A stretch of DNA of 36,920 nt, from positions 1 to 36,920 of IMG/VR virus record IMGVR_UViG_3300010362_000530; one strand, 5' to 3'. The DNA comes from a virus. Taxonomy: Duplodnaviria; Caudoviricetes. The notes beneath the pieces were generated by a model. The model was not told the origin of the DNA, ran no database searches, and saw only the letters and a program-made list of their open reading frames with translations. A program made the translations under genes and the position numbers. Shown piece after piece: positions 7,988 to 36,102 of this stretch (positions within the stretch are counted from its first letter, which is position 1; the number at the start of each line of letters is the position of its first letter).

Positions 7988-10900
7988 ATGGCCGCCAACC
8001 GCATTTATCTACAGGTTGTCTTTAACTCCGAAGGCGCTGAAGCGAATATCGACAAGCTCAATCAAAACATCAAAAACATCGGTACGAACAGCGAGCAGGC
8101 CACCAAGCAGGCCGCCGCCGGGATGAAAAACGTCTCGGTCAGCGTCGAGAGCGTCACCGATGAAATATCCCGCCTGGGCCGAGTGATCGCTGCCGCCGGC
8201 ATCGGACGCGAGATCGAGCACATTATCCATCTGGGCGAAGAGCTGAATCGCGTGCGCGGGGCTCTCTTGCGCGGGACCGGCGGCAACGAGCTCCTGAAGC
8301 AGCTCGACTCTCTGGCCGAAAGCGGGCTTGCCACCGAGGAGCAACTGGTTCGCACTGCCAACCAGATGATCAACGCCGGAGTCGCCGCCGATCAGGTCGC
8401 GCCGCGCATCAAGGCATTGATCGACACTCTCGCGGCTAAAGGGCTCGATCCTCACAATCTCGAAACAGCCATGCGGCTCCTGAACGAGATCACGGTGCAG
8501 GGGCAGGTGTCGCCCAAAAAGGCCGTGAGCCTCTTCCGCGAATCGGGCCTGGATGTATTCGCCGAGCTGTCGCAGGGCATCGCGAATTCCAGGAAGGAAT
8601 TCCGCGACGAGATGAAGAAGATCCCCGCGGACGAGTTCATAAAAGAGCTGCTGGCTAGGGCGGGCAAGGAATACGAAGGGACTGCCGATAAGATCGCCAA
8701 CGTCACCAAGGAGCAGATCAAGCTGAACAACGCCTGGGGCGAATTCGCCCGGGAGCTGGCTACGTCGTTCGGGCCCGAGATCGCCGACTTAGTCAAAGAG
8801 CTTACAGCGTTGCTCCGGCTGCTGACCGGCATTGTTCACATTCTGGGCGAGCTGCCATCACCCCTGAAGACCGTGCTGGTCAATGTCATCGCAATCACCG
8901 CGGCGATCAAGACGATCGGCTCTTTGCTCAGTGTGCTCAGGGGAGTCCAGGGGTTGAGCGCCGCAGCCGGCATTGGGGCCGCCGGAACTGGCCCGGGCAG
9001 CGGTGGCGGCGGCAGGCTGCTGGGCCTGGGCCTGGGCGGCGCTGCCGAGGCCGCTAACGTGAAGGCTGCCGAAGCAGCTCAAGCCGCGAAAATGAAAGCC
9101 GCGGAGGAAGCCGCCGCAGCCGCAAAAACCGCCGCGGAGGAAGCCGCTGCCGCCAAGACCGCAGCTAAAGCCCAGGCGAAGGCCGATGCTCAAGCCGCGA
9201 GGGAGGCCAAGCAAGCCACCCGCGCCGCCGCCGGGCAGGCCGCCAAGGAAGCCGCGGACGCTGCTGCTGCTGCCAGGGCCGCGGGAGCGACAGCCGCTGC
9301 CGGCGTTGGCGCTGCTGCCACGACAGCCGCAGCGGAGGTCTCTGCCGCAACCGTGGCCGCCGGCAAGACCATCGCCACTGCCGAGACAACCGCCGCCACA
9401 GAGGCCGCAGCTCAGGTGGAAGCGGGCGCTGCGGTCGCCGGCGCGACGATCGCCACCAGTGAGGTCGCCGCAGCTACCACCATCAGCGCTGAACGTGTCG
9501 CTGCTGCGAAACTGGCTGGCGAGGCCACGGTTATCGGGGCGGCGGAAGCCGGGGCCACTATCGCCAAGGCCGAAGTCACGGCAGGCGCAGAGATCGCCAC
9601 GGGCATCACCGAGGGCGCAGCCGCGGCGGCCACTGCGATCACCGCGGCTGGCGCAGCCGCCGGAGCTGCCGGAGCTGCCGCGGGAGCTGCCAGTGGCGCA
9701 GCCAAAGCCGGCATCTTCGCACGCATCTGGACTTGGATCCGCGGCATATTCGGCGGCGGCGGACTCACAACCCTGAATATCGGGCGCGGCGCTGCGGTCG
9801 CCGGCGAAGCTGCCGGAGCCGCGGAAATCGTAGGAGCTGGCGCAGCCGTCGCCGGGCGCACCTTCCTGGGCATGACGCCGACCGGCTGGATAACGCTGAT
9901 CGCACTCACCGTGGGCCAGATCATCCTGGAACACTTTCTGCCGAAGCTGCTGGGCGGCGGCGAGAAAACAAAGGTTGGGCTGCCCACTGGGGCCTCTGGA
10001 GGGCTGCACACGGTTGAAGACCCGGAGAAGGTAAAGCATGAGATCGAAACCAGCCTGAATTTTCTGTCCGAGGCTCAAGCCCGAAATCTGAAAGTTGGCA
10101 AAGAGGGCATCGCTGCCCTGACGTTCTCTTACGAGGAGTACTTCCGCAAGGTCGCCAAAAACGAGGAGGCGCTCGCGAATTACCGCAAGGCGCTCGCCAT
10201 CGACGTCGATACGGAGATCAAGAAACGGACGGAGGAAACCAGACGCGAGACGTTGAGGTGGGTCGAGGAAATGGGTCGCGTGAGCCGGCAGCAGGACGTT
10301 CTGGTCGCCGAGCTGACTTATGGAACCGATACGCTGGCAGGCCGGCGGAAAGTGGATGAAACGCGGGCGCAGGCCTTCGAGGCTGATCTGGAGGAAACCA
10401 CCAAGTACAAGAAAGAGGAAATCCGGCGGGCCGCGGACCTCGATGCGCAAGCCGCCCACGATGCGATCCTGATCTCGCGGATCACCGCGAAATCCACAGC
10501 TCGCGAGCGGCTGGAAGCAGAGAAAGCAGCCGTCGAGGCCTCGATGAAAATCCTGCTCGACGCCGACCAGCGCATCAGCATGCTGGAGCAGCACAAGAAC
10601 GCCGAAGAGATCCGGCACGCTTTGGAAACCGAGGTCGCCAAGCGGGAGATCGCCATCGAGGAGAAGAAGCGGTCCATCGATACGCAGCTCCAGCTCGATC
10701 AGGCGCTCGCGCAGAAGGAAACCGCACTCCGGGTCGCCTATCTGCAAACCGTGCGCCCGCGCTCCTACCAGGAGCAAATCGACCTCATCAACCAGACTGC
10801 CGACGCCCAGGTCGAGGGCGCCAGGAAATCGACCGAAGCCCAGAAACAGGCCACCGAGGATTACATCACTTGGTATCAGGGCAAATACAAAGACGCCACC

Positions 10901-12622
10901 GACGCCGTCAATGAGATGCGCAACAACCAGGAGAAGGAGCGCACCCGCCTGGACGCCCAGTTCACCCAGCAAGAGGGCGAGATTCGCCTCGCCGCCTGGA
11001 AGCAGACCAACGAGCTGATCATCGAGCAGCAGCGCTCCATGTACGAGCAAATGCTCTCCGGCGTCGATCAGTTCTGGGGCGCCCTGATGGACCGCAGCAA
11101 AAGCGTCTGGGCCAGTATCGGCGACCTGATCAAGAACTCGCTGACTAACGCCCTCAAGAGCTTCATCACCTCGCGGTTCGCGGCTGCACTAACCGAAATG
11201 TTCGGCGGCGGCAAAGTGGAGTTCACCGGCACATGGCTCGACAAGCTGCTGGGCCGCAGACCTTACTACCAGGGCACGGGCGAGCCGCGGCCCAACGTCG
11301 AGCGAGCAACCGCGGAAATTCAACTGAAGGTCGCCAGTTTGCAATACACCGCGGGCAAGGAGCTGCTCGCCGCAGCGGCTGGCCTACAGCAAGCCGCGAG
11401 GTCCCTTGTGGTGGCGTCTGGGGGTGGCGGCGCGGGCGAGGCTGCACGGAGTGTAAGTGACGCCGAGTACGCCAGGATTGTATCGAGCGCCGGCGGGGTT
11501 GGCCCCGAGGGGATCCCCGAGAGCTACGGACTGCCGGGCGGCGTCAGCGGCGACTGGGCCGGCGAGACAGGGACTCCGGTGGCGTTCCCCGGTGGCGGGA
11601 CGGCGGCCACGTTCCCGGGAGGCGCAGCCGCGGCCACGCTTCCCGGCATGATGCCGGGCATGGCCGGCTCGACCGGCCTGGGCGGCGGCGGCATTCGCCT
11701 GCCGGGCATCGGCTCGATCACCGGCGGCAAACAGGGACTGGCGAACCTTGCCTATGGCCTGGGCGCCATGGTCGGCACGAGCCTGTTCCTGTCGAGCCTG
11801 CAGAGGCGCGGCGTCAGGGCCGGGCTACAGGGCATCGGCGGGGCCGCACTGGCGGGCTACAGCCTAGCCAAGCAAGCCGGCCTGTCGGGTCAGGCGGGCG
11901 CCCTCGCGGGCGCAGGCGTGGGGATCTACGCCGCCGGCATGAAGCGCGGCGGCGTCACGGGACTCCTGATGGACGTGGGCGGCGCCGCCCTGACGGGATT
12001 CGCCATCGGCGCAATGTTCGGCGGCCCCATAGGCGCTTTAGTGGGGGGCGCGATCGGAGCCGGCGTCGGGCTCGTGTCGGGCGTTGCGCGGCTGATCTTT
12101 GGAGGGAGCAAGACCGAGGAGGTCCGCACCATGGTGCGGCGGGCCTATGGCGTCGATATCTCCGATTCGAAAATCCTCCAGCAAATCGTGGACACCGCCG
12201 ATCAGAAATTCGGCGGCGACCTCCGGCTCGCGGTGTACTCGCCCGACGTGATGGAGCTGGTGCGGCTCTATGCGATGACCACCGGGCAATCGCAGATGGG
12301 CCTGCCGCGGCCTATGTACGCGGCGTCGTTCGCGCAATCCGGGGCCGGAGGCCTGCAGTTGCAGCCGGTCTATTCAGGCGGCCAGCTCGTCAACAGTCCC
12401 TACAGCGGCACGACCACAACGCAATGGCAGAACGCGACCGCGCCATTGTACATGCAACTCAATCCGTCCCAGGCGACGGCGCTGTTCAGCGGTCAAGTGG
12501 TGCAGGTCATGGGCAACAATCCCGGGGCAGTGGGCGCAGCCAATACGGTTGCGGCGAGGTCAGGACAAGGCAGGCAGGGACAGACGGCGGCGCTAATAGA
12601 GCCGGCTACGGTGCTTCAATGA
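7988..12622 (+). CDS. Tail tape measure protein
   Basis: 1544 aa, helical and coiled-coil with Ala/Gly-rich and glycine-zipper segments, directly after the G/GT chaperones. Confidence 0.92.
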   Translation: MAANRIYLQVVFNSEGAEANIDKLNQNIKNIGTNSEQATKQAAAGMKNVSVSVESVTDEISRLGRVIAAAGIGREIEHIIHLGEELNRVRGALLRGTGGNELLKQLDSLAESGLATEEQLVRTANQMINAGVAADQVAPRIKALIDTLAAKGLDPHNLETAMRLLNEITVQGQVSPKKAVSLFRESGLDVFAELSQGIANSRKEFRDEMKKIPADEFIKELLARAGKEYEGTADKIANVTKEQIKLNNAWGEFARELATSFGPEIADLVKELTALLRLLTGIVHILGELPSPLKTVLVNVIAITAAIKTIGSLLSVLRGVQGLSAAAGIGAAGTGPGSGGGGRLLGLGLGGAAEAANVKAAEAAQAAKMKAAEEAAAAAKTAAEEAAAAKTAAKAQAKADAQAAREAKQATRAAAGQAAKEAADAAAAARAAGATAAAGVGAAATTAAAEVSAATVAAGKTIATAETTAATEAAAQVEAGAAVAGATIATSEVAAATTISAERVAAAKLAGEATVIGAAEAGATIAKAEVTAGAEIATGITEGAAAAATAITAAGAAAGAAGAAAGAASGAAKAGIFARIWTWIRGIFGGGGLTTLNIGRGAAVAGEAAGAAEIVGAGAAVAGRTFLGMTPTGWITLIALTVGQIILEHFLPKLLGGGEKTKVGLPTGASGGLHTVEDPEKVKHEIETSLNFLSEAQARNLKVGKEGIAALTFSYEEYFRKVAKNEEALANYRKALAIDVDTEIKKRTEETRRETLRWVEEMGRVSRQQDVLVAELTYGTDTLAGRRKVDETRAQAFEADLEETTKYKKEEIRRAADLDAQAAHDAILISRITAKSTARERLEAEKAAVEASMKILLDADQRISMLEQHKNAEEIRHALETEVAKREIAIEEKKRSIDTQLQLDQALAQKETALRVAYLQTVRPRSYQEQIDLINQTADAQVEGARKSTEAQKQATEDYITWYQGKYKDATDAVNEMRNNQEKERTRLDAQFTQQEGEIRLAAWKQTNELIIEQQRSMYEQMLSGVDQFWGALMDRSKSVWASIGDLIKNSLTNALKSFITSRFAAALTEMFGGGKVEFTGTWLDKLLGRRPYYQGTGEPRPNVERATAEIQLKVASLQYTAGKELLAAAAGLQQAARSLVVASGGGGAGEAARSVSDAEYARIVSSAGGVGPEGIPESYGLPGGVSGDWAGETGTPVAFPGGGTAATFPGGAAAATLPGMMPGMAGSTGLGGGGIRLPGIGSITGGKQGLANLAYGLGAMVGTSLFLSSLQRRGVRAGLQGIGGAALAGYSLAKQAGLSGQAGALAGAGVGIYAAGMKRGGVTGLLMDVGGAALTGFAIGAMFGGPIGALVGGAIGAGVGLVSGVARLIFGGSKTEEVRTMVRRAYGVDISDSKILQQIVDTADQKFGGDLRLAVYSPDVMELVRLYAMTTGQSQMGLPRPMYAASFAQSGAGGLQLQPVYSGGQLVNSPYSGTTTTQWQNATAPLYMQLNPSQATALFSGQVVQVMGNNPGAVGAANTVAARSGQGRQGQTAALIEPATVLQ

Positions 12623-21395: not shown

Positions 21396-21740
21396 ATGAG
21401 CAGAACGATCAAACTGACGGCCCTTCAGCGGCTGGGCCTCGAAAATTTAATGGCTGACCAGCGTGGCAAACGCGAGGAGAACCGGACGCTCTACTCGATC
21501 CGGCAGAAGGTGCGCCTCTCGACAGAAGAGCGCCAGCAGTTTTTCAAGCCGCTGCCGAATGGGCAGCAAATCATTGACGACGTCGCCCTCGCCAAATCCA
21601 ACGGCTTCGAGCTGACCCTGAGCGATGACGAAGTACGCCGGTTGATCAAATTGGGCGACACCATCGAGATGCCGGTCGGCATCATGGATTGGTTTGAGCC
21701 ATTATTGGTGGAGCTTGAGAGGCCGCAAGCCACTGCCTGA
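21396..21740 (+). CDS. Hypothetical protein (possible tail fibre chaperone)
   Basis: AGGAGGT RBS, helical 114 aa, last gene of the tail block. Confidence 0.7.
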   Translation: MSRTIKLTALQRLGLENLMADQRGKREENRTLYSIRQKVRLSTEERQQFFKPLPNGQQIIDDVALAKSNGFELTLSDDEVRRLIKLGDTIEMPVGIMDWFEPLLVELERPQATA

Positions 21741-22127
21741 CCTATGTCTGTAACGCTTGTAAATTTATGAAGCCGCCGAACGCAACACTACAGTGAGTGA
21801 GATCGCGCAGAAATAGACCGTTACTGTCTAGGTCCTGCGCTTTTCCACAGGCGTCTACGTAAGCCGTTCTACGTAGTGCGTTTGACGGATCCGGGGGCTG
21901 CGAATGTCCTGTGACAATCGCGTGACTGGCATACGGGATTCCCCCAATAGTGACGGGGCTGTCTTTTGTGAAATGAGACACTGCGGAAACTCTGTGGAGA
22001 CTCCATTACTTCCGTGCGCGACAAGCCAAATAATCGATGCCCGCTGACCAGGACTGTGACAGAATTCTGTCTATGTTTTGCGCTTCAGAGACCGCAGTTA
22101 CGTCTGCAAGGCGCGAGTCTGAGACTG

Positions 22128-22152
22128 GAGGCTGCTCGCGCAGCCTCTTTCT
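22128..22152 (+). terminator. Possible intrinsic terminator
   Basis: GAGGCTGC-tcgc-GCAGCCTC (8-bp stem) followed by TTTCT. Confidence 0.5.
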
Positions 22153-22328
22153 ACTTAGAGCACTCAGGCCTTTAGTTTTCAGGCCGTTCTGGCTCACGGG
22201 GGTTCTCATAGCTACGCATGCCATGCGCTATATTTGCGAAAAATTTGCGCAGCTTAGTTTCAGAATTTGCGAAGTATAAGTTCATAATTTTCACAGACTA
22301 AGTTACTGACCAACAAGAGACTTAGGGC

Positions 22329-22358
22329 TTGACAGATACGACAGGTGTGCCATATAGT
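22329..22358 (+). promoter_or_regulatory. Sigma70-type promoter for the early operon
   Basis: TTGACA (22329-22334), 18-nt spacer, TATAGT (22353-22358). Confidence 0.75.
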
Positions 22359-22494
22359 TCTGAGCAGTAGTTTTGATTGAGTTGCCGCGGTGAGTTAGTT
22401 CCGGCGTTGGGTCGCCGATAAGTCATCGCGAAACTTACCTCCCCCAACCCTGTCGCCCATGTTGCGCGGTCAGTGACCACGAGAGGAGAGCTGT

Positions 22495-22815
22495 GTGTCA
22501 AGACCAATGAAGCCGGTCAAAGCCGGAAGGATCGTCCGCAAAACTATCACGTTCACCCGGGCCGCCTACGAGCGGCTCATGGAGGAGCGGGACCGTCGCG
22601 ACAGTGAGGTCATTCATGCGTATCAGATCTCCGAGATTCTGGTCGAGTATGTGATCCGGGGAGGCAAGGCGCTGCCGATATCGCAATGGGAGGAGGGGCT
22701 GCTCAAGGGCGCCGGCGTCGAGCCGCCGCGGATCCCGCCGGCAGGCGCGAAACGCAACCGGAAACCGAACAGCAGAGAGGCCGGAGATGCCGATACCGGA
22801 GCCGCTAGCGCTTGA
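22495..22815 (+). CDS. Putative ribbon-helix-helix DNA-binding regulator
   Basis: GAGGAG RBS. RKTITFTRAAYERL...ISEILVEYV fits the beta-helix-helix pattern. First gene after the promoter. Confidence 0.6.
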   Translation: MSRPMKPVKAGRIVRKTITFTRAAYERLMEERDRRDSEVIHAYQISEILVEYVIRGGKALPISQWEEGLLKGAGVEPPRIPPAGAKRNRKPNSREAGDADTGAASA

Positions 22816-22942
22816 GCATGCTCACCATTGCGACCTGTGCAAAAGGCTGCCGGGCGTGCGGACGGTCGATATTTTCTACTGGGTCTGCGAGAACTGCTAT
22901 TGGAACTACCTGACGACTCTGGAGCTGGAGCGATACCGATGA
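22787..22942 (+). CDS. 51-aa CxxC...CxxC zinc-finger microprotein, absent from the ORF track
   Basis: MPIPEPLALEHAHHCDLCKRLPGVRTVDIFYWVCENCYWNYLTTLELERYR, with GAGG upstream and an ATGA overlap with the next gene. Confidence 0.65.
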   Translation: MPIPEPLALEHAHHCDLCKRLPGVRTVDIFYWVCENCYWNYLTTLELERYR

Positions 22943-27595: not shown

Positions 27596-27831
27596 TTGAG
27601 GAAACCATGCCAAATCTAGACACTCTGCGAAAGCTCCCCTACGGTTGGGACGGCGGCAACGCCGAGCCGCCGAGCGAGGAATCGATACGGCTGGCGGAAG
27701 CCATCATCAGCGCTACGCCGGTCGTGCTGCCGCACGAGAGCGGCGGTGTCGTGATCGAATGGCGCGACAGGGCTCAGTCTCTGTTGCTGGTGGAAACCAT
27801 TTCCCGCGAGGGAACTTTTGATCTGGAGTAA
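27592..27831 (+). CDS. Hypothetical protein
   Basis: L..L..GWDG..A.PP motif, in operon. The ATG at 27607 with GAGG is an alternative start. Confidence 0.65.
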   Translation: MIEETMPNLDTLRKLPYGWDGGNAEPPSEESIRLAEAIISATPVVLPHESGGVVIEWRDRAQSLLLVETISREGTFDLE

Positions 27832-27834
27832 CTT

Positions 27835-28080
27835 ATGGCGTCACCCAAGGAAATCGCGGATCTCTTCACCTCGATGCTCACAGACGGGCTTCTGTTGAGC
27901 ATGTCGTCTGGAATTGAGCCGGCGTTCTTGTCCCACCCCATAGAGATTGGAGGTGCGCAGACGTTGTACTTTGTGATCGCCAACGAGGCCGCATTCGAAC
28001 AGGTATTCGTCAAGGCCGCCAGGGACCGTGGCGTAGCGCCAATGGTCAAGAGCGGGGACCGTCCGCGGAGGGTGCAATGA
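27835..28080 (+). CDS. Hypothetical protein
   Basis: GGAG RBS, tightly packed in the operon. Confidence 0.6.
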   Translation: MASPKEIADLFTSMLTDGLLLSMSSGIEPAFLSHPIEIGGAQTLYFVIANEAAFEQVFVKAARDRGVAPMVKSGDRPRRVQ

Positions 28081-28262
28081 CCGATACCGAGTTACTCAAC
28101 TGGGCCGAAGAAAACCTGGATGATGTTCAAGTCATCCGCGACAAAGGTCGCGGCAACAAAGTGATCGTCAGTTTTTGCTTTCCGTCCACCGGATGTCCGG
28201 CTGACGTGGAAGCTGAGACGCTGCGCGGGGCGCTGATGTTGGCGCAAACAGTTACGAGCTGA
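28077..28262 (+). CDS. Hypothetical protein
   Basis: GGAGG RBS, ATGA overlap, MTDTELLNW.E...TLRGAL pattern common in phage small ORFs. Confidence 0.65.
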   Translation: MTDTELLNWAEENLDDVQVIRDKGRGNKVIVSFCFPSTGCPADVEAETLRGALMLAQTVTS

Positions 28263-28267
28263 TCGAC

Positions 28268-28525
28268 ATGGCCGACCTGCCAGATTCCTGGGCCGGGATG
28301 GAAAACGTCCTGAGTAAAAGCGAGGAGGCCGCTACGGTCCCTCACGTGGATCCGCATTCGCCGCACGGCTTCATCGTGGTGGGCGCCGAGTGGCTCAGGC
28401 GGCGTTTTCGCGGCCAGCCGAATCAGGTGCTTCGCGACCACTACTTATTCGCAGCAGCCAACGGGCGCCGCTACTGGTTCCACGATGCGCCAGAGGTGCG
28501 GCGCGAGCTGGGAATGGAGCCATGA
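28268..28525 (+). CDS. Hypothetical protein
   Basis: Fills the operon gap, ATGA-coupled to the next gene. Confidence 0.55.
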   Translation: MADLPDSWAGMENVLSKSEEAATVPHVDPHSPHGFIVVGAEWLRRRFRGQPNQVLRDHYLFAAANGRRYWFHDAPEVRRELGMEP

Positions 28526-29673
28526 AGCGCGACGAAAAACTGGCGGCGATAGTCGAGCGCCCGGTCCATTATCTGGCGCAGTGCTCCCGAAGATTTCCGC
28601 AGGTTTGGCGGCAGCACGATCAGGCGCGGCGAGAGTATAAGCCAATTCTTAACTGGCCTGATTGGTGTTATGCGCCGGTGGCTGTGACTGCCATAGCAAT
28701 ATTGGGCGCCCCGGCCTTGCATGCGTCCAACGAATTGATAGACGAGCAGGCAGCGATCATGAAATGTTATTCGGCATTGGCCGCTTGGCGCATCACCAAG
28801 GGCGTCTATATCTTCGATCAAACGATCTGGGACCGATTATGGGAGACGCAGATAGAGGGCGATTTGCCGGTCGAGGTCCTGCGACAATTGCCGGAGTATT
28901 GCGTATATATTCCATTCCCGCGGCCCTTGGATTACTACACTATAGACTGCTTCCACCGTATACCGATCTATGGTTTCTTTGCTCACCTTGAGCAGCTTTC
29001 GGCTGGGGATACCTATCTACTACTGACTCTCGACATTGATACCAGTTCCGTGCGGGGCTGCGATGTGGGCGCCTACCATGAATTAGTGAATATCACGCTC
29101 CCGCTAAAGGGCGACTTATCTGAGTGCTGTAGGTTATTTGTCGGAGGATTAAAGCGAGGGCTTGGGGATAGGAGGCGCATGGCCGAGGCGGGAGAAATTG
29201 ACGCGGAACAAATCCCCTACTTTCTCGATGCAGAACAGTGGGTCGATCATCAGCAGGACCTGCTCATTCGTCCGCTTCTCGCGATCTTGCTCTACCTTTG
29301 CACAGCCGAGGCTGACATTCGCGGCCCCGACCCGATTCGCGGCCTCCGTACTTATAAATCAAAGCGCGGCCTTCGAGCCCTAACGCCGGATGAACCGACC
29401 ATCCGCGAAGTTGGGTATGTAATCGGCGCGAAGTTCCGAGCGGCGATAGCGGCGGCTTCGTCGCGGAGCGCTGGCGGCGGCGGGGCCCACGGCAGTCCCA
29501 TGCCTCATGTCCGGCGGGCTCATTATCACGGCTATTGGATCGGGCCGAAGGCCGCCATCGAAGGCGAGCAGCCCACCAGCCGGCGATTCATTTTGAAGTG
29601 GCTGAATCCGATCTTCGTCAACATGGGGGAGGGCGGCGAGAGTATCCCGACCGTTCATCAGGTGGTCGCATGA
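28522..29673 (+). CDS. AcrVA2/FinQ-like protein (putative anti-CRISPR family member), 383 aa
   Basis: Ordered motifs AAWR.T.G.Y.FD, G.LP.E.L..LPE.C.YI, GFFAHLE, PLL..LLYLC and SP.PHVRRAHYH.YW.G...LKWL.PI.V, recalled as typical of this family. Start reassigned to the ATG at 28522 (GGAG RBS). Confidence 0.7.
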   Translation: MKRDEKLAAIVERPVHYLAQCSRRFPQVWRQHDQARREYKPILNWPDWCYAPVAVTAIAILGAPALHASNELIDEQAAIMKCYSALAAWRITKGVYIFDQTIWDRLWETQIEGDLPVEVLRQLPEYCVYIPFPRPLDYYTIDCFHRIPIYGFFAHLEQLSAGDTYLLLTLDIDTSSVRGCDVGAYHELVNITLPLKGDLSECCRLFVGGLKRGLGDRRRMAEAGEIDAEQIPYFLDAEQWVDHQQDLLIRPLLAILLYLCTAEADIRGPDPIRGLRTYKSKRGLRALTPDEPTIREVGYVIGAKFRAAIAAASSRSAGGGGAHGSPMPHVRRAHYHGYWIGPKAAIEGEQPTSRRFILKWLNPIFVNMGEGGESIPTVHQVVA

Positions 29674-29975
29674 AGGAAATGCAGCCGGCGCTGCGCTCGC
29701 CTGAGGAGGTCCAGCGGGCGCACCACATTCTCATGAGCCTCATTTTCGAAGACGATCTGCGGGGCTACATATTCAGCAATTGCGAGCCGGCGATGGCGTA
29801 TGAATGCCTGAAGGCTCAATGCGACATCCTGTGCTGGGTCTCGCGGCATGAACACAATCAAACCTTCGCCAAACACCTGCGCCAGATCGAAGCGGGGCTG
29901 CGCGAGGCCGGCGTCGAGATACTGAACAGCGGCGAGCTGAAGCGGAGGCCGCCGAAGAGTCAATCAACTAGATAG
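29670..29975 (+). CDS. Hypothetical protein
   Basis: ATGA-coupled to the AcrVA2-like gene. EEVQRAH..L...D.LCWV..H.H..TF. Confidence 0.65.
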   Translation: MKEMQPALRSPEEVQRAHHILMSLIFEDDLRGYIFSNCEPAMAYECLKAQCDILCWVSRHEHNQTFAKHLRQIEAGLREAGVEILNSGELKRRPPKSQSTR

Positions 29976-29986
29976 AAGGAGGAGCT

Positions 29987-30547
29987 ATGGGAGACGTTTC
30001 AACGCCAACAGTAGCAGTGGACCTCACTACATCCACAGACAGCAGCGCCACAGCGCCGCCTGACGGCGGCTTGCGAGACAGCGTCGGGCAATTGCCATCA
30101 TTGCCGGCAACGCCCGAGGAATTCAACAACGATATGCGGGAGGCGCAGATCGCCGAGTTCGGCGACCCGGATGGGTGGCAAATGAACACCAGGACGGGAC
30201 CGGAACCGAGCCCGGTGTGCGCTTTTCCGTCGCTATATTTTTTGGGATATGTGACGGTGTCGCTTCCTCAAGGCGGATTCAGACAAGAGGCGCCGCGCTA
30301 CTGCGGAACCGGCTACGCGGCGGCTGTGATGCTCAGCTTCACGCAGAAGTATTTCGACGCCGACGCATCGATGTACTACGACTGGCCCCAAGACGATGAG
30401 TACGGTGGCGGCTATTCCTCGAACCGCAAAGTGCCGTGGCTGAAGTCCGGATCGAAGAAGGCCAATGTGGGGCTGATGAGCGAGTATTTTACTCACAATT
30501 ATCCGTCCGGGAAGGCGATGGTCGCCGCTCTGGCCGAATTCCGATAG
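29987..30547 (+). CDS. Hypothetical protein
   Basis: Very strong AAGGAGGAG RBS, followed by a hairpin. Confidence 0.7.
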   Translation: MGDVSTPTVAVDLTTSTDSSATAPPDGGLRDSVGQLPSLPATPEEFNNDMREAQIAEFGDPDGWQMNTRTGPEPSPVCAFPSLYFLGYVTVSLPQGGFRQEAPRYCGTGYAAAVMLSFTQKYFDADASMYYDWPQDDEYGGGYSSNRKVPWLKSGSKKANVGLMSEYFTHNYPSGKAMVAALAEFR

Positions 30548-30648: not shown

Positions 30649-30993
30649 ATGACGGACACTTCAACTGCCACCCGGTTGCCCTATGGCGCCGGGAGCATTC
30701 AATTTCGAGGGCAGGTTTTCTGGGCCTGCTACAAGACGAACCAGGGCGAACTCTCCCAGGTGAATACGCATACCGCCGACCGCGGGTTAGCGCTCAAGCT
30801 CTGCGCACAGCTTGTCCTGGCGCAGTGGCGCGAGCGCCTCGCCGATCTGGAGGCGATCGCTGATGGCCGCCAGGAAAATCAAGGTCAGGGTGAAGCCGGC
30901 GGAAGAGACGCCAGACGGCGAGGAGCTGCTCGTTCGGGCGCTGCGGGCCACCGTAAAACTGGGCGAAAAGGTACTCAGGGAGGAACACGGTAA
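30649..30993 (+). CDS. Small protein resembling a tyrosine-integrase arm-binding domain (RDF/excisionase candidate)
   Basis: R..YGAGSIQFRGQVFWACY....G......T.T.D...A.KL pattern. TAATG-coupled to the recombinase. Confidence 0.55.
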   Translation: MTDTSTATRLPYGAGSIQFRGQVFWACYKTNQGELSQVNTHTADRGLALKLCAQLVLAQWRERLADLEAIADGRQENQGQGEAGGRDARRRGAARSGAAGHRKTGRKGTQGGTR

Positions 30994-31072
30994 TGGCGGC
31001 AAGCGCACTCGTAAAACCGAGTCCCCAACAGACGATGCTCATCGGAGCGAAGATCACCAGGGTGAGCCTTGA
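30863..31072 (+). CDS. Possible overlapping small basic protein
   Basis: GGAGG 9 nt before the ATG at 30863 (MAARKIKVRVKP...). Overlaps both neighbours. Confidence 0.35.
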   Translation: MAARKIKVRVKPAEETPDGEELLVRALRATVKLGEKVLREEHGNGGKRTRKTESPTDDAHRSEDHQGEP

Positions 31073-32828
31073 GCGTCAGGTCGGCAACTATTCAGCCGAT
31101 GCGCAGGACCGGAAGTTTGACAAGCTGGGCCAGGAGAACGGCGTCATTTTTCCCGACGAATTTCGCGTCGATGACGAAGGCTACAGCGGCGCGGACTTCA
31201 ACCGGCCCTCGATCAAGAAAACTATGCGCTGGGTGAAGGAAGGCCGCATCAACGTCGTGGGTTGGGCGCACATTGACCGCTTCGCCCGCAACGTCGAGGG
31301 CGGGCTGGCGACGATTCGGATGTTTCGCAAGGCAGGGGCGCAGATCCTGCTGGGGCATCTGGGCCTGTACCGGGATGAATCGACTTTCCGGCTGCACATG
31401 CTCATCTACATGATGCTCGCCGAGCATCAGCGGGACGTGATTCGCGAGAAGTCGATCGAGGGCGTCTTCGAGAAAGTCCGCAAGGGGTTCGCGCACGGTG
31501 GCCGCTCGCCGTATGGATGGCGATTCGTCACCGCCCTGGAGCTGGCCGCGAAAGAAGTCGAGCAGGCCCGCCGGGAAGGCCGCGAACCGGTGATCGAGCG
31601 CAAGCCCAAGAACGTTCACGAGCCGGTCGCCGAGCATCATAGGGTCCTGCACCTGATGGAGGATGCCATCCTCGCCGGCGAGAGCCAACGCGGCGTCTGC
31701 CGGTTTCTGCTGGAGCAGGGCGTCAAGAGCCCGACCGGCAAACCACGCTGGAATCCGACGACCGTGACCAGCATTGTCCACGACCTGCTTTACTCGACTG
31801 CCATTTGGCATTACAACAAGCACATGAACGTCGAGGTCGAGCCGGAAGATATGCGCAACCCCAACGGCGATCGCCACCGCATGAAGACCGGACACCGGCT
31901 GCGGGCCGAGAGCGAATGGATCGAACAGAAGCTGGCCGGCGGCCCCGTCTGGACGCCCCAACGGCAAGCCGAGCTGATCGTCGCCCTGGAGCGCAATGGT
32001 CGCACGTCCGTTGGCAAGCCCGCCCGCCCGGCGTCTGAGGGCGGCGTGAAGTCCGTTCTGTCGGGCATGTTGACATGCGGTCGCAGGACCATCACCGGCG
32101 AGATCTGCAACCATGCATGGGCGCCGCGGCAGAAGTCCACTCCCAACGGGCGCCGTCTGCGGTACGGCTGCACCAACCGTGATGACCTGACGGGCGCGGA
32201 GCTGTGCCAGAAGGTCACTGTAGAGCGCACGGGCAGCGGCCCGCGGCATGCGGGCAACCCGACCAAGGAAATTCGCACCTGGGACGGCCCCATGCTGGAG
32301 GAAACTCTCTGCCAGGGCGTTGCCGATGCTCTCATCGCGCAATTGCCTGATCTCGTGCGTCGGCACCAGGATCAGATGAACGACAGTTTCGACGCCGCCG
32401 AACTCGACAGCATGAAGGCGAGGGAGAAAAAGCTGGCGGCCAAGCTGGACGAAGCGCGGCGGAAGGAAATTTTGGCGGATGACGCCGAAGCCAAGGAGAC
32501 GTATTCTAATCTGGTGGCGGAACTCAAGGGCGAACTGAAGCTGCTTCAGAGGCGTCTCGCTACGATGGCCGGCGAGGCTGAAGAGATCGTCGTGAACTAC
32601 CGCACCATCGCAGCCAAGGTCAAAGCTGCCGCAACCGCACGCCTTCCTGAGAACCGGCGGGCGTTCCTGCTGATCTGGGTGGCCGAGATCGTCATGCTGG
32701 AGCACGAGGCTGAAGTGACGCTGAAAGTGCCCATAGCGAACTCAACCAGGGGTGCTAACTGTCCAGTGCAGCAACCTGCACTTGACAATTACATCCACCT
32801 GAAAACAAAGGTTCGGGTCGCCGCATGA
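30993..32828 (+). CDS. Large serine recombinase (phage integrase)
   Basis: RVS catalytic motif, D.GYSG....RP, DRFARN, PYGW recombinase domain, LSGMLTCG Zn-ribbon and coiled coil. 611 aa. Confidence 0.93.
   Translation: MAASALVKPSPQQTMLIGAKITRVSLERQVGNYSADAQDRKFDKLGQENGVIFPDEFRVDDEGYSGADFNRPSIKKTMRWVKEGRINVVGWAHIDRFARNVEGGLATIRMFRKAGAQILLGHLGLYRDESTFRLHMLIYMMLAEHQRDVIREKSIEGVFEKVRKGFAHGGRSPYGWRFVTALELAAKEVEQARREGREPVIERKPKNVHEPVAEHHRVLHLMEDAILAGESQRGVCRFLLEQGVKSPTGKPRWNPTTVTSIVHDLLYSTAIWHYNKHMNVEVEPEDMRNPNGDRHRMKTGHRLRAESEWIEQKLAGGPVWTPQRQAELIVALERNGRTSVGKPARPASEGGVKSVLSGMLTCGRRTITGEICNHAWAPRQKSTPNGRRLRYGCTNRDDLTGAELCQKVTVERTGSGPRHAGNPTKEIRTWDGPMLEETLCQGVADALIAQLPDLVRRHQDQMNDSFDAAELDSMKAREKKLAAKLDEARRKEILADDAEAKETYSNLVAELKGELKLLQRRLATMAGEAEEIVVNYRTIAAKVKAAATARLPENRRAFLLIWVAEIVMLEHEAEVTLKVPIANSTRGANCPVQQPALDNYIHLKTKVRVAA
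32756..32791. repeat. 36-bp imperfect dyad, candidate attP
   Basis: TAACTGTCCAGTGCAG-caac-CTGCACTTGACAATTA, 14 of 16 positions symmetric, inside the recombinase 3' end. Confidence 0.55.
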
Positions 32829-35121: not shown

Positions 35122-36102
35122 GTGACTTCAGCATACTCCAAAAGCTCCTACATTTGCATACCGGAAGCGCTCGTTTTAGCGCAAGATTTGTCGCATGTTG
35201 CGCTACGGTTGCTGCTAATTCTGATTACGTTCCGTAACCGAACCACCGGGCAGTGCAACCCGAAGCGGGCGACCCTCGCAAAGCGCCTGGGATTCGGGCT
35301 GCGCACCACCGACAAGTATCTGGCTGAACTGCGCGGCAAAGGGCTGGTGCGCAGCCGGCCAACCGCGGGCCGGTATAGCAGCTACGAAATAGACACCGCC
35401 GCAGAGTGGAAAACGGCCCCGCCGGAGGCCGCCGGCGAGCGCCCGGAATCGCCCGGGAGGTGCGCAACCAGTTGCGCATCAGGTGCGCAAGATGGTGCGC
35501 CGGAGGTGCGCAAGAGTGCGCAGTTTGGAGCTGCTGTATCTCTATATGAACCAACTGTTCTTCAACCAAAGGTATTTGAACCACTCGCAACCGCCGCCGC
35601 CGCGCCGGTTGCTGAGGAGGTGCGCAAGCTCGAAAAACCGACGGCGGCGGCGGCGGTAAGCGATGACCAAAAATCTTTCCAACACCAAGACCGGGTGGCG
35701 GTAGCCGCGCCACTTCCGGTTTTGCCGCCCCAGGTGAGGCCGGAAAACGCGAAGTCGGAGGTTCGGCAGCTAGCGCAGGAATTGGCCCAGGAGCTGTCCG
35801 CTACCCACCCCAAGCCAGGATTACCCTACAAGGCCGTCGAGGAGATCACCAGGGCGCTCGAAACGTCGGGAAACCCCATTCTGGCCGCGGAGCAGATGCG
35901 GGCAAATCACGCAGCGTGGTGCGAATACTGGCGAGGACCAGGAGCCAACGGATTCATCGGGATGCTTTTCCGCTGGGTTCGCGACGGCGAATGGCAGATC
36001 AAGCCGGTGGTGAGGAGGCCGATGAGCAAAACCGATTTGAAAGCAGAGGAGTTTTTAAAGGCCTATGCCAATCGACGCGGCGCAAGCCTACAAGCTTGTT
36101 AG
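35122..36102 (+). CDS. HTH-domain phage replication initiator (O-like)
   Basis: N-terminal winged HTH (GQCNPKRATLAKRLG...T..KYLAEL..KGLV) with internal iteron-like repeats. Confidence 0.78.
   Translation: MTSAYSKSSYICIPEALVLAQDLSHVALRLLLILITFRNRTTGQCNPKRATLAKRLGFGLRTTDKYLAELRGKGLVRSRPTAGRYSSYEIDTAAEWKTAPPEAAGERPESPGRCATSCASGAQDGAPEVRKSAQFGAAVSLYEPTVLQPKVFEPLATAAAAPVAEEVRKLEKPTAAAAVSDDQKSFQHQDRVAVAAPLPVLPPQVRPENAKSEVRQLAQELAQELSATHPKPGLPYKAVEEITRALETSGNPILAAEQMRANHAAWCEYWRGPGANGFIGMLFRWVRDGEWQIKPVVRRPMSKTDLKAEEFLKAYANRRGASLQAC
35458..35585. repeat. Putative replication origin: iterons plus AT-rich tract
   Basis: AGGTGCGCAA at 35458, 35481 and 35504 (23-bp period), six TGCGC in 61 bp, then an AT-rich tract with T(G/C)AACCA three times at a 15-bp period. 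Confidence 0.75.

Follow-up and report, generated by a model that had tools for sequence, protein, structure and literature searches.

A divergent AcrVA2/FinQ-family protein encoded beside the integrase of a temperate phage, with a target that is probably not Cas12a

The stretch of DNA analysed here (the window, 36,920 nucleotides) is the whole of IMG/VR virus record IMGVR_UViG_3300010362_000530 (Duplodnaviria; Caudoviricetes), which is linear and about 70% complete, and all of its recognisable genes lie on the plus strand. Head and tail genes, encoding portal, protease, decoration protein, major head protein and tape measure, occupy 0-21.7 kb. Beyond a low-GC gap come, in order, a RecE/YqaJ-like exonuclease, small genes with no assigned function, a gene of the AcrVA2/FinQ family whose product we call P0001, an integrase, a lysozyme and a replication initiator (Table 1). 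Capsid, tail and integrase genes in the same virus record place the AcrVA2-family gene on a mobile element, and the large serine integrase indicates that the phage is temperate. The low-GC gap between tail and early genes (21740-22830, GC 0.51-0.55) contains two terminator-like hairpins (22058-22071 and 22127-22148) and probably acts as the phage's regulatory switch region. A promoter-like site in this gap is possibly the promoter of an early operon that includes the AcrVA2-family gene, which we note only as a lead; such sites number four in the region against 3.6 in shuffles, which is no excess. Among the head and tail genes, the tape-measure-like gene (ORF 7988-12622, 1544 aa) holds two very-high-GC stretches (0.68-0.74) within 8700-12300, the first of them crossed by a strong AT skew, and only the first 310 residues of its product match a tape-measure PHROG.

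Table 1. Positions of the features discussed in the text, numbered along the window.
Feature	Position	Strand	Details
Promoter-like site	22329..22358	+	TTGACA-18-TATAGT, 11/12 matches; in low-GC gap after tail genes
Upstream 85-aa gene	28268..28525	+	no assigned function; stop overlaps start of AcrVA2-family gene (ATGA)
Three-gene accessory block	28522..30547	+	between 85-aa gene and integrase; only ~540 bp there in contig C475
AcrVA2/FinQ-family gene, intact	28522..29673	+	protein P0001, 383 aa; ATG 28522, TGA 29671-29673
N-terminal conserved patch AAWRITKGVYIFD	28786..28818	+	W89 28786-28788 = AcrVA2 W79; D99 28816-28818 = AcrVA2 D89
Substituted Trp positions (alignment)	28897-28899; 29404-29406; 29524-29526		residues 126, 295 and 335
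PHVRRAHYH motif	29503..29529	+	CCT CAT GTC CGG CGG GCT CAT TAT CAC
H329; R331; H334	29506-29508; 29512-29514; 29521-29523	+	= AcrVA2 H286; R288; H291
Downstream 101-aa gene	29670..29975	+	no assigned function; start overlaps stop of AcrVA2-family gene (ATGA)
186-aa gene	29987..30547	+	no assigned function; homologue 74% identical at 44.8 kb of C475
Large serine recombinase (integrase)	30993..32828	+	phrog_95, E 1.5e-41; Resolvase PF00239 and Recombinase PF07508

The longest frame of the AcrVA2-family ORF opens at a GTG (28390) and would encode 427 aa. We prefer the ATG start of the 383-aa form, since homologue alignments begin at about residue 1-13 of that form and the start overlaps the upstream stop as ATGA; a GGAG stands immediately 5' of the ATG. 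A sequence-only reading of this DNA had marked the 383-aa ORF and, within it, a PHVRRAHYH motif. Both are borne out, the motif being exact and intact in the sequence.

The immediate surroundings of the gene were compared with a 54.8-kb contig (C475) from a bin labelled Blastocatellia, whose capsid protein is the most similar one, at 82% identity. C475 is syntenic with the window, 27 of whose 36 proteins find a match there while nine do not. It encodes a homologue of the 85-aa protein (27809-28060, 56% identity) and then an integrase (28600-30366) that is 39% identical to that of the window. P0001 itself has no match in any of the four genomes that carry the closest capsid relatives, the C475 genome among them. 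The homologue of the 186-aa gene is placed elsewhere in C475 with an identity far above that of the flanking genes, and by sequence this gene looks like a shuffled accessory module; the 101-aa gene has a weak (30%) homologue, also elsewhere in C475. Neither of these two neighbours matches anything in Pfam, PDB sequences or PADLOC. On these sequence comparisons, the likely reading is that the AcrVA2-family gene is an accessory gene beside the integrase of a temperate phage.

Codon use bears on how the gene arrived. More ATA, TTA and TAT codons than in the neighbours had been noted from the sequence and taken to suggest separate acquisition. The bias is clear: per 1000 codons, ATA occurs 20.9 times against 3.0 in the other genes, TTA 13.1 against 2.0 and TAT 33.9 against 11.0 (enrichments of 7-, 6.5- and 3-fold), and A/T-ending codons make up 136/383 of the gene versus 2434/10027 elsewhere (Fisher P 1.6e-6). 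The gene has a GC3 of 0.645, whereas 31 other window genes average 0.756 (sd 0.042), and overall GC, about 0.61 in the flanking DNA, drops to 0.54 over 28.5-29.4 kb. The bias is nonetheless not unique to this ORF in the window, since two other genes have a similarly low GC3 (28077-28262, 0.639; 35122-36102, 0.653). Two observations support separate acquisition, the low GC3 and the lack of any counterpart in the phage most closely related; the mosaic make-up of the whole early region, as seen in the window proteins that lack a C475 counterpart, weakens the case.

Searched against all PDB chains with phmmer, P0001 matched only AcrVA2 (7ci1_A, E 1.6e-17); the alignment falls into an N-terminal stretch (query residues 41-157) and a C-terminal one (226-370). 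A family profile built from 73 sequences matched 7ci1 with an E value of 7.9e-41 over residues 20-319 of the 323 in the chain, a significant match that reaches far beyond the short motif. The PHROGs match is phrog_6160 (E 8.8e-41), which is annotated 'unknown function'. A precomputed PF26125 (PF26125.1) label is attached to P0001 and to all 120 homologues listed, one of which bears the UniRef name 'AcrVA2 family anti-CRISPR'. P0001 had no match in NCBIfam or in the Pfam copy scanned, which was one without the PF26125 model, and PADLOC returned no match for P0001 or seven neighbours. An exhaustive phmmer search of 1.84 billion cluster representatives retrieved 3360 clusters with E<=1e-3, of which 2001 reached <=1e-10 and 330 reached <=1e-30, the closest relative of P0001 among the representatives being 44-45% identical.

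Structure prediction gave the same picture. An AlphaFold2 model of P0001 computed from the 73-sequence alignment is confident (pLDDT 88.2, pTM 0.89), and Foldseek found three significant matches to it in the PDB, all of them AcrVA2 chains with E values of about 1e-17; the next match stands at E 0.079. The model has in common with the AcrVA2 crystal structure its three-domain fold. Among the low-ranking Foldseek rows, several point to ribosome recycling factor, which is tempting since AcrVA2 is reported to bind ribosomes; with E values of 0.08-0.8, TM scores of 0.10-0.22 and an rmsd of about 20 A, we rejected this likeness as noise that probably stems from long helices. Taken together, sequence and predicted fold establish P0001 as a member of the AcrVA2 family, and the PHVRRAHYH motif, sitting as it does within full-length homology, is not a chance occurrence. 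The AcrVA2-like identity proposed in the sequence-only reading therefore holds, through a whole-length sequence match, the same fold and the retention of functionally tested residues. Some relatives are longer (P0027, P0146, P0171, P0173 and P0246, 500-617 aa), with N-terminal extensions of 130-280 aa ahead of the AcrVA2-like part that may be mis-called starts; no Pfam domain scored over threshold in 12 longer family members examined for domain fusions.

Ten columns are invariant in the 73-sequence alignment, and P0001 keeps every one of them (W89, R90, P116, P124, G151, H329, R331, H334, G341 and W360). In the C-terminal motif, H329, R331 and H334 are found in 73/73 sequences, A333 in 70/73 and H336 in 71/73; in the N-terminal patch, W89 is found in 73/73 and D99 in 64/73. 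These positions include, by alignment, all five residues implicated in AcrVA2 activity, namely W79, D89, H286, R288 and H291, which correspond to W89, D99, H329, R331 and H334 of P0001 (the 7ci1 chain-sequence index is the native numbering plus one, and the entry numbers residues from 0). According to the preprint of Marino et al. (bioRxiv 10.1101/2022.11.29.518452), W79A and D89A caused a moderate loss of AcrVA2 function, and H286A, R288A and H291A diminished activity with Cas12a binding kept. Two of the three AcrVA2 residues that touch the Cas12a 620-636 peptide appear to be kept (D142 and D242) and the third, E98, is replaced by Q110, in a region that is weakly aligned. Conservation in the alignment is lowest at residues 61-80 and 201-240, with an identity to P0001 of 0.07-0.09, and we infer that these segments may set target specificity.

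Three near-invariant Trp positions are replaced in P0001, by Y126 (Trp in 70/73), R295 (68/73) and Y335 (68/73), and P0001 is the only one of the 73 members in which all three are replaced; AcrVA2 itself has a Tyr at the second of these positions. Together with the atypical codon use, these substitutions could be taken to mark a decaying or inactive member kept by chance. We regard such decay as extremely improbable, as no premature stop breaks the reading frame, the ten invariant columns are kept, the model is confident and both ends of the gene join its neighbours in tidy ATGA overlaps.

Relatives of P0001 are widespread on mobile elements. By tblastn, family genes were found on nine phage records and 74 plasmid records, 54 of the latter conjugative and 45 from Acinetobacter. 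A profile-guided scan of IMG/VR, based on the alignment, recovered 288 stretches that encode relatives, whereas a single-protein scan of the same viral data with P0001 recovered one only. We compared gene neighbourhoods at 66 of 80 viral loci, 14 having been dropped because the ORF caller missed the family gene, and found no conserved neighbour gene in the 66; the commonest neighbour clusters were tyrosine integrases (6), portal proteins (5), serine integrases (4), methyltransferases (3) and PAPS reductases (3). Similarly, none of the 85-aa, 101-aa and 186-aa neighbours in the window had a homologue at any of 83 family-gene loci. The unshared neighbours indicate an accessory gene that stands by itself and frequently lies close to the borders of prophage modules. 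Marino et al. describe about 1,800 orthologues on diverse mobile elements, typically without Cas12a.

This distribution bears on whether P0001 might serve its own phage, regulating a phage gene (for example to time integration or lysis) by the mRNA decay known from AcrVA2. The position directly upstream of the integrase and the coupling to small phage genes would suit such a role. The closest related phage manages without the gene, however, relatives lie in unrelated neighbourhoods in which even the commonest neighbour cluster reaches only 6/66 loci, and plasmid-borne members argue against a phage-specific housekeeping function; control of an own gene is thus very unlikely.

Host assignment was approached through capsid relatives. 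The four closest (64-82% identity) come from bins labelled Blastocatellia, Terracidiphilus, Burkholderiales and Bryobacteraceae, and a 55%-identical relative is an integrated prophage on a 465-kb contig of a Gemmatimonadales bin. Binning may be wrong, since several of the relative contigs are phage-sized. The host is probably a soil bacterium, perhaps of the Acidobacteriota. We then searched sampled genomes with the Cas12a model TIGR04330, the samples covering candidate groups by bin label rather than the phage's own host. Cas12a scored over cut-off in 0/401 genomes from the phylum of the Blastocatellia bin (one 17-bit match), 0/241 from the order of the Burkholderiales bin (one 18-bit match) or 0/241 from the phylum of the Gemmatimonadales bin, that is, in 0/883 genomes from three candidate host groups picked by metagenome-bin labels. 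The positive control, the order of a bin labelled Bacteroidaceae (G687), gave 16/401 over cut-off, and an earlier control, the family of a record of only 1.5 Mb labelled [Ruminococcus] gnavus (G405), failed with 0/282. The label of G405 and that of another record, G652, named 'Bacteroidaceae bacterium', look wrong: the two are 1.5-1.8 Mb in size, seem to belong to one family and have capsid genes resembling those of gut Alphaproteobacteria bins, and this mislabelling spoiled the earlier control. In the phylum group of the Blastocatellia bin, with its 0/401 for Cas12a, the AcrVA2-family profile matched 2/401 genomes, one of the two matches being 23% identical to P0001. Cas1 was over cut-off in 2/5 bins checked and Cas3 in 1/5; in the Blastocatellia bin two contigs encode Cas1, and one of these also encodes a Cas3. 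Matches of this kind indicate that other CRISPR types are present in candidate hosts.

These data weigh on the most literal reading of the homology, in which P0001 is a true type V-A anti-CRISPR whose host carries Cas12a and which lowers cas12a mRNA as AcrVA2 does. The common fold and the retained active residues fit that role, and AcrVA2 is reported to act on Cas12a orthologues only 35% identical to one another, via a conserved LSKT peptide (Marino et al., bioRxiv 10.1101/2022.11.29.518452). Against it stand the 0/883 candidate-group genomes with Cas12a versus 16/401 in the control, the low identity of P0001 to AcrVA2 (22-25%) and, according to the same preprint, the occurrence of most orthologues without Cas12a. 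We consider an anti-Cas12a function very improbable indeed. The earlier suggestion that the target may not be Cas12a agrees with the genome counts, in groups that rest on bin labels.

The reading we favour, with a probability of roughly 0.6, is that P0001 is a working, divergent member of the AcrVA2/FinQ family that would work in the manner of AcrVA2, against some protein other than Cas12a; this reading is built on sequence comparison and on analogy to AcrVA2. AcrVA2 causes a translation-coupled loss of cas12a mRNA, as reported by Marino et al. (bioRxiv 10.1101/2022.11.29.518452), whose preprint also contains the other facts that the sequence-only reading drew on, the kinship with FinQ and the C-terminal His/Arg residues. 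In the 2026 Nature version of that work, as described in a review (PMC13728456), the C-terminal part of AcrVA2 associates with ribosomes and polysomes, and the mRNA is not cut by AcrVA2 itself; a cellular enzyme is recruited. By analogy, P0001 would lower the level of one specific protein through the family's published mechanism. Its N-terminal and middle domains would read a short N-terminal peptide of the target while the nascent chain is leaving the ribosome, and the C-terminal beta-strand domain with H329, R331 and H334 would hold P0001 on translating ribosomes. The same C-terminal domain may recruit a host RNase, and the target mRNA would be destroyed before translation ends. We predict that the target is not Cas12a and is a protein either of the host's defences or of a rival mobile element. 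We infer this mechanism for P0001 by carrying it over from AcrVA2, a protein 22-25% identical to it.

A precedent for a target other than Cas12a is FinQ, the fertility inhibition protein of IncI/F-like E. coli plasmids. Marino et al. assign it to this family and note a predicted C-terminal domain of similar form as well as the HxR motif, and the kinship of P0001 with FinQ is taken from that assignment; FinQ is plasmid-borne and the gene studied here phage-borne. The same preprint describes FinQ as an inhibitor of F-plasmid transfer that seemed to reduce tra mRNA. P0001 could likewise be aimed at a gene of a competing plasmid or phage and exclude rivals from the lysogen, an account that has its mechanism in common with our favoured reading and differs in the class of target. 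The many conjugative plasmids that carry the family would accord with rival exclusion, as would a place beside the integrase, where accessory genes expressed from the prophage often sit. Yet the gene belongs to one long plus-strand array and is linked to the genes on either side by translational coupling, an arrangement at least equally in keeping with early lytic expression, and a candidate rival element is not known; we hold exclusion of rivals to be unlikely as the specific role.

Several features set P0001 apart from characterised relatives. AcrVA2, from a Moraxella bovoculi prophage (PDB 7CI1/7CI2), has 322 aa against the 383 of P0001, in which the poorly conserved segments at 61-80 and 201-240 are longer, and for P0001, unlike AcrVA2, no Cas12a was found in the candidate host groups. 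The genes beside the AcrVA2-family gene in the window include none recognised as an acrVA1-like partner. A phage homologue of AcrVA2, ORF43 of Shewanella phage vB_SbaS_Y11, is known by sequence and predicted structure, in that case from a phage with a cultured host and no integrase. As a phrog_6160 match with the PF26125 label, P0001 belongs to groupings already on record. The family, its motif, its Cas12a-free spread on mobile elements and the idea of other targets are already published, in the preprint of Marino et al. among others of the sources cited here. On sequence grounds, P0001 appears to be a new, divergent member marked by the loss of three Trp residues, and its clade may already sit among the roughly 1,800 orthologues of that study.

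Returning to the favoured reading, a more specific form of it can be put forward tentatively, with rather less confidence. The phage may infect soil bacteria that lack Cas12a, perhaps Acidobacteriota, and P0001 may be a retargeted reader of nascent chains, in which a conserved ribosome-docking C-terminal domain is combined with peptide-recognition segments (61-80 and 201-240) that have diverged towards another defence or rival protein. AcrVA2 has been reported to be the first bacterial case of a protein that recognises a nascent polypeptide and brings about the destruction of the mRNA encoding it, and what its thousands of homologues target in Cas12a-free bacteria is a question already raised by Marino et al. 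To that question P0001 adds a divergent, well-supported case, encoded by a temperate phage whose host is uncultured and probably soil-dwelling, with the known functional residues intact; alone it would not surprise a specialist, and it is a possible candidate for target-discovery panels. If P0001 is indeed a retargeted reader, polypeptide-specific co-translational mRNA destruction would be a general, re-aimable weapon of mobile elements.
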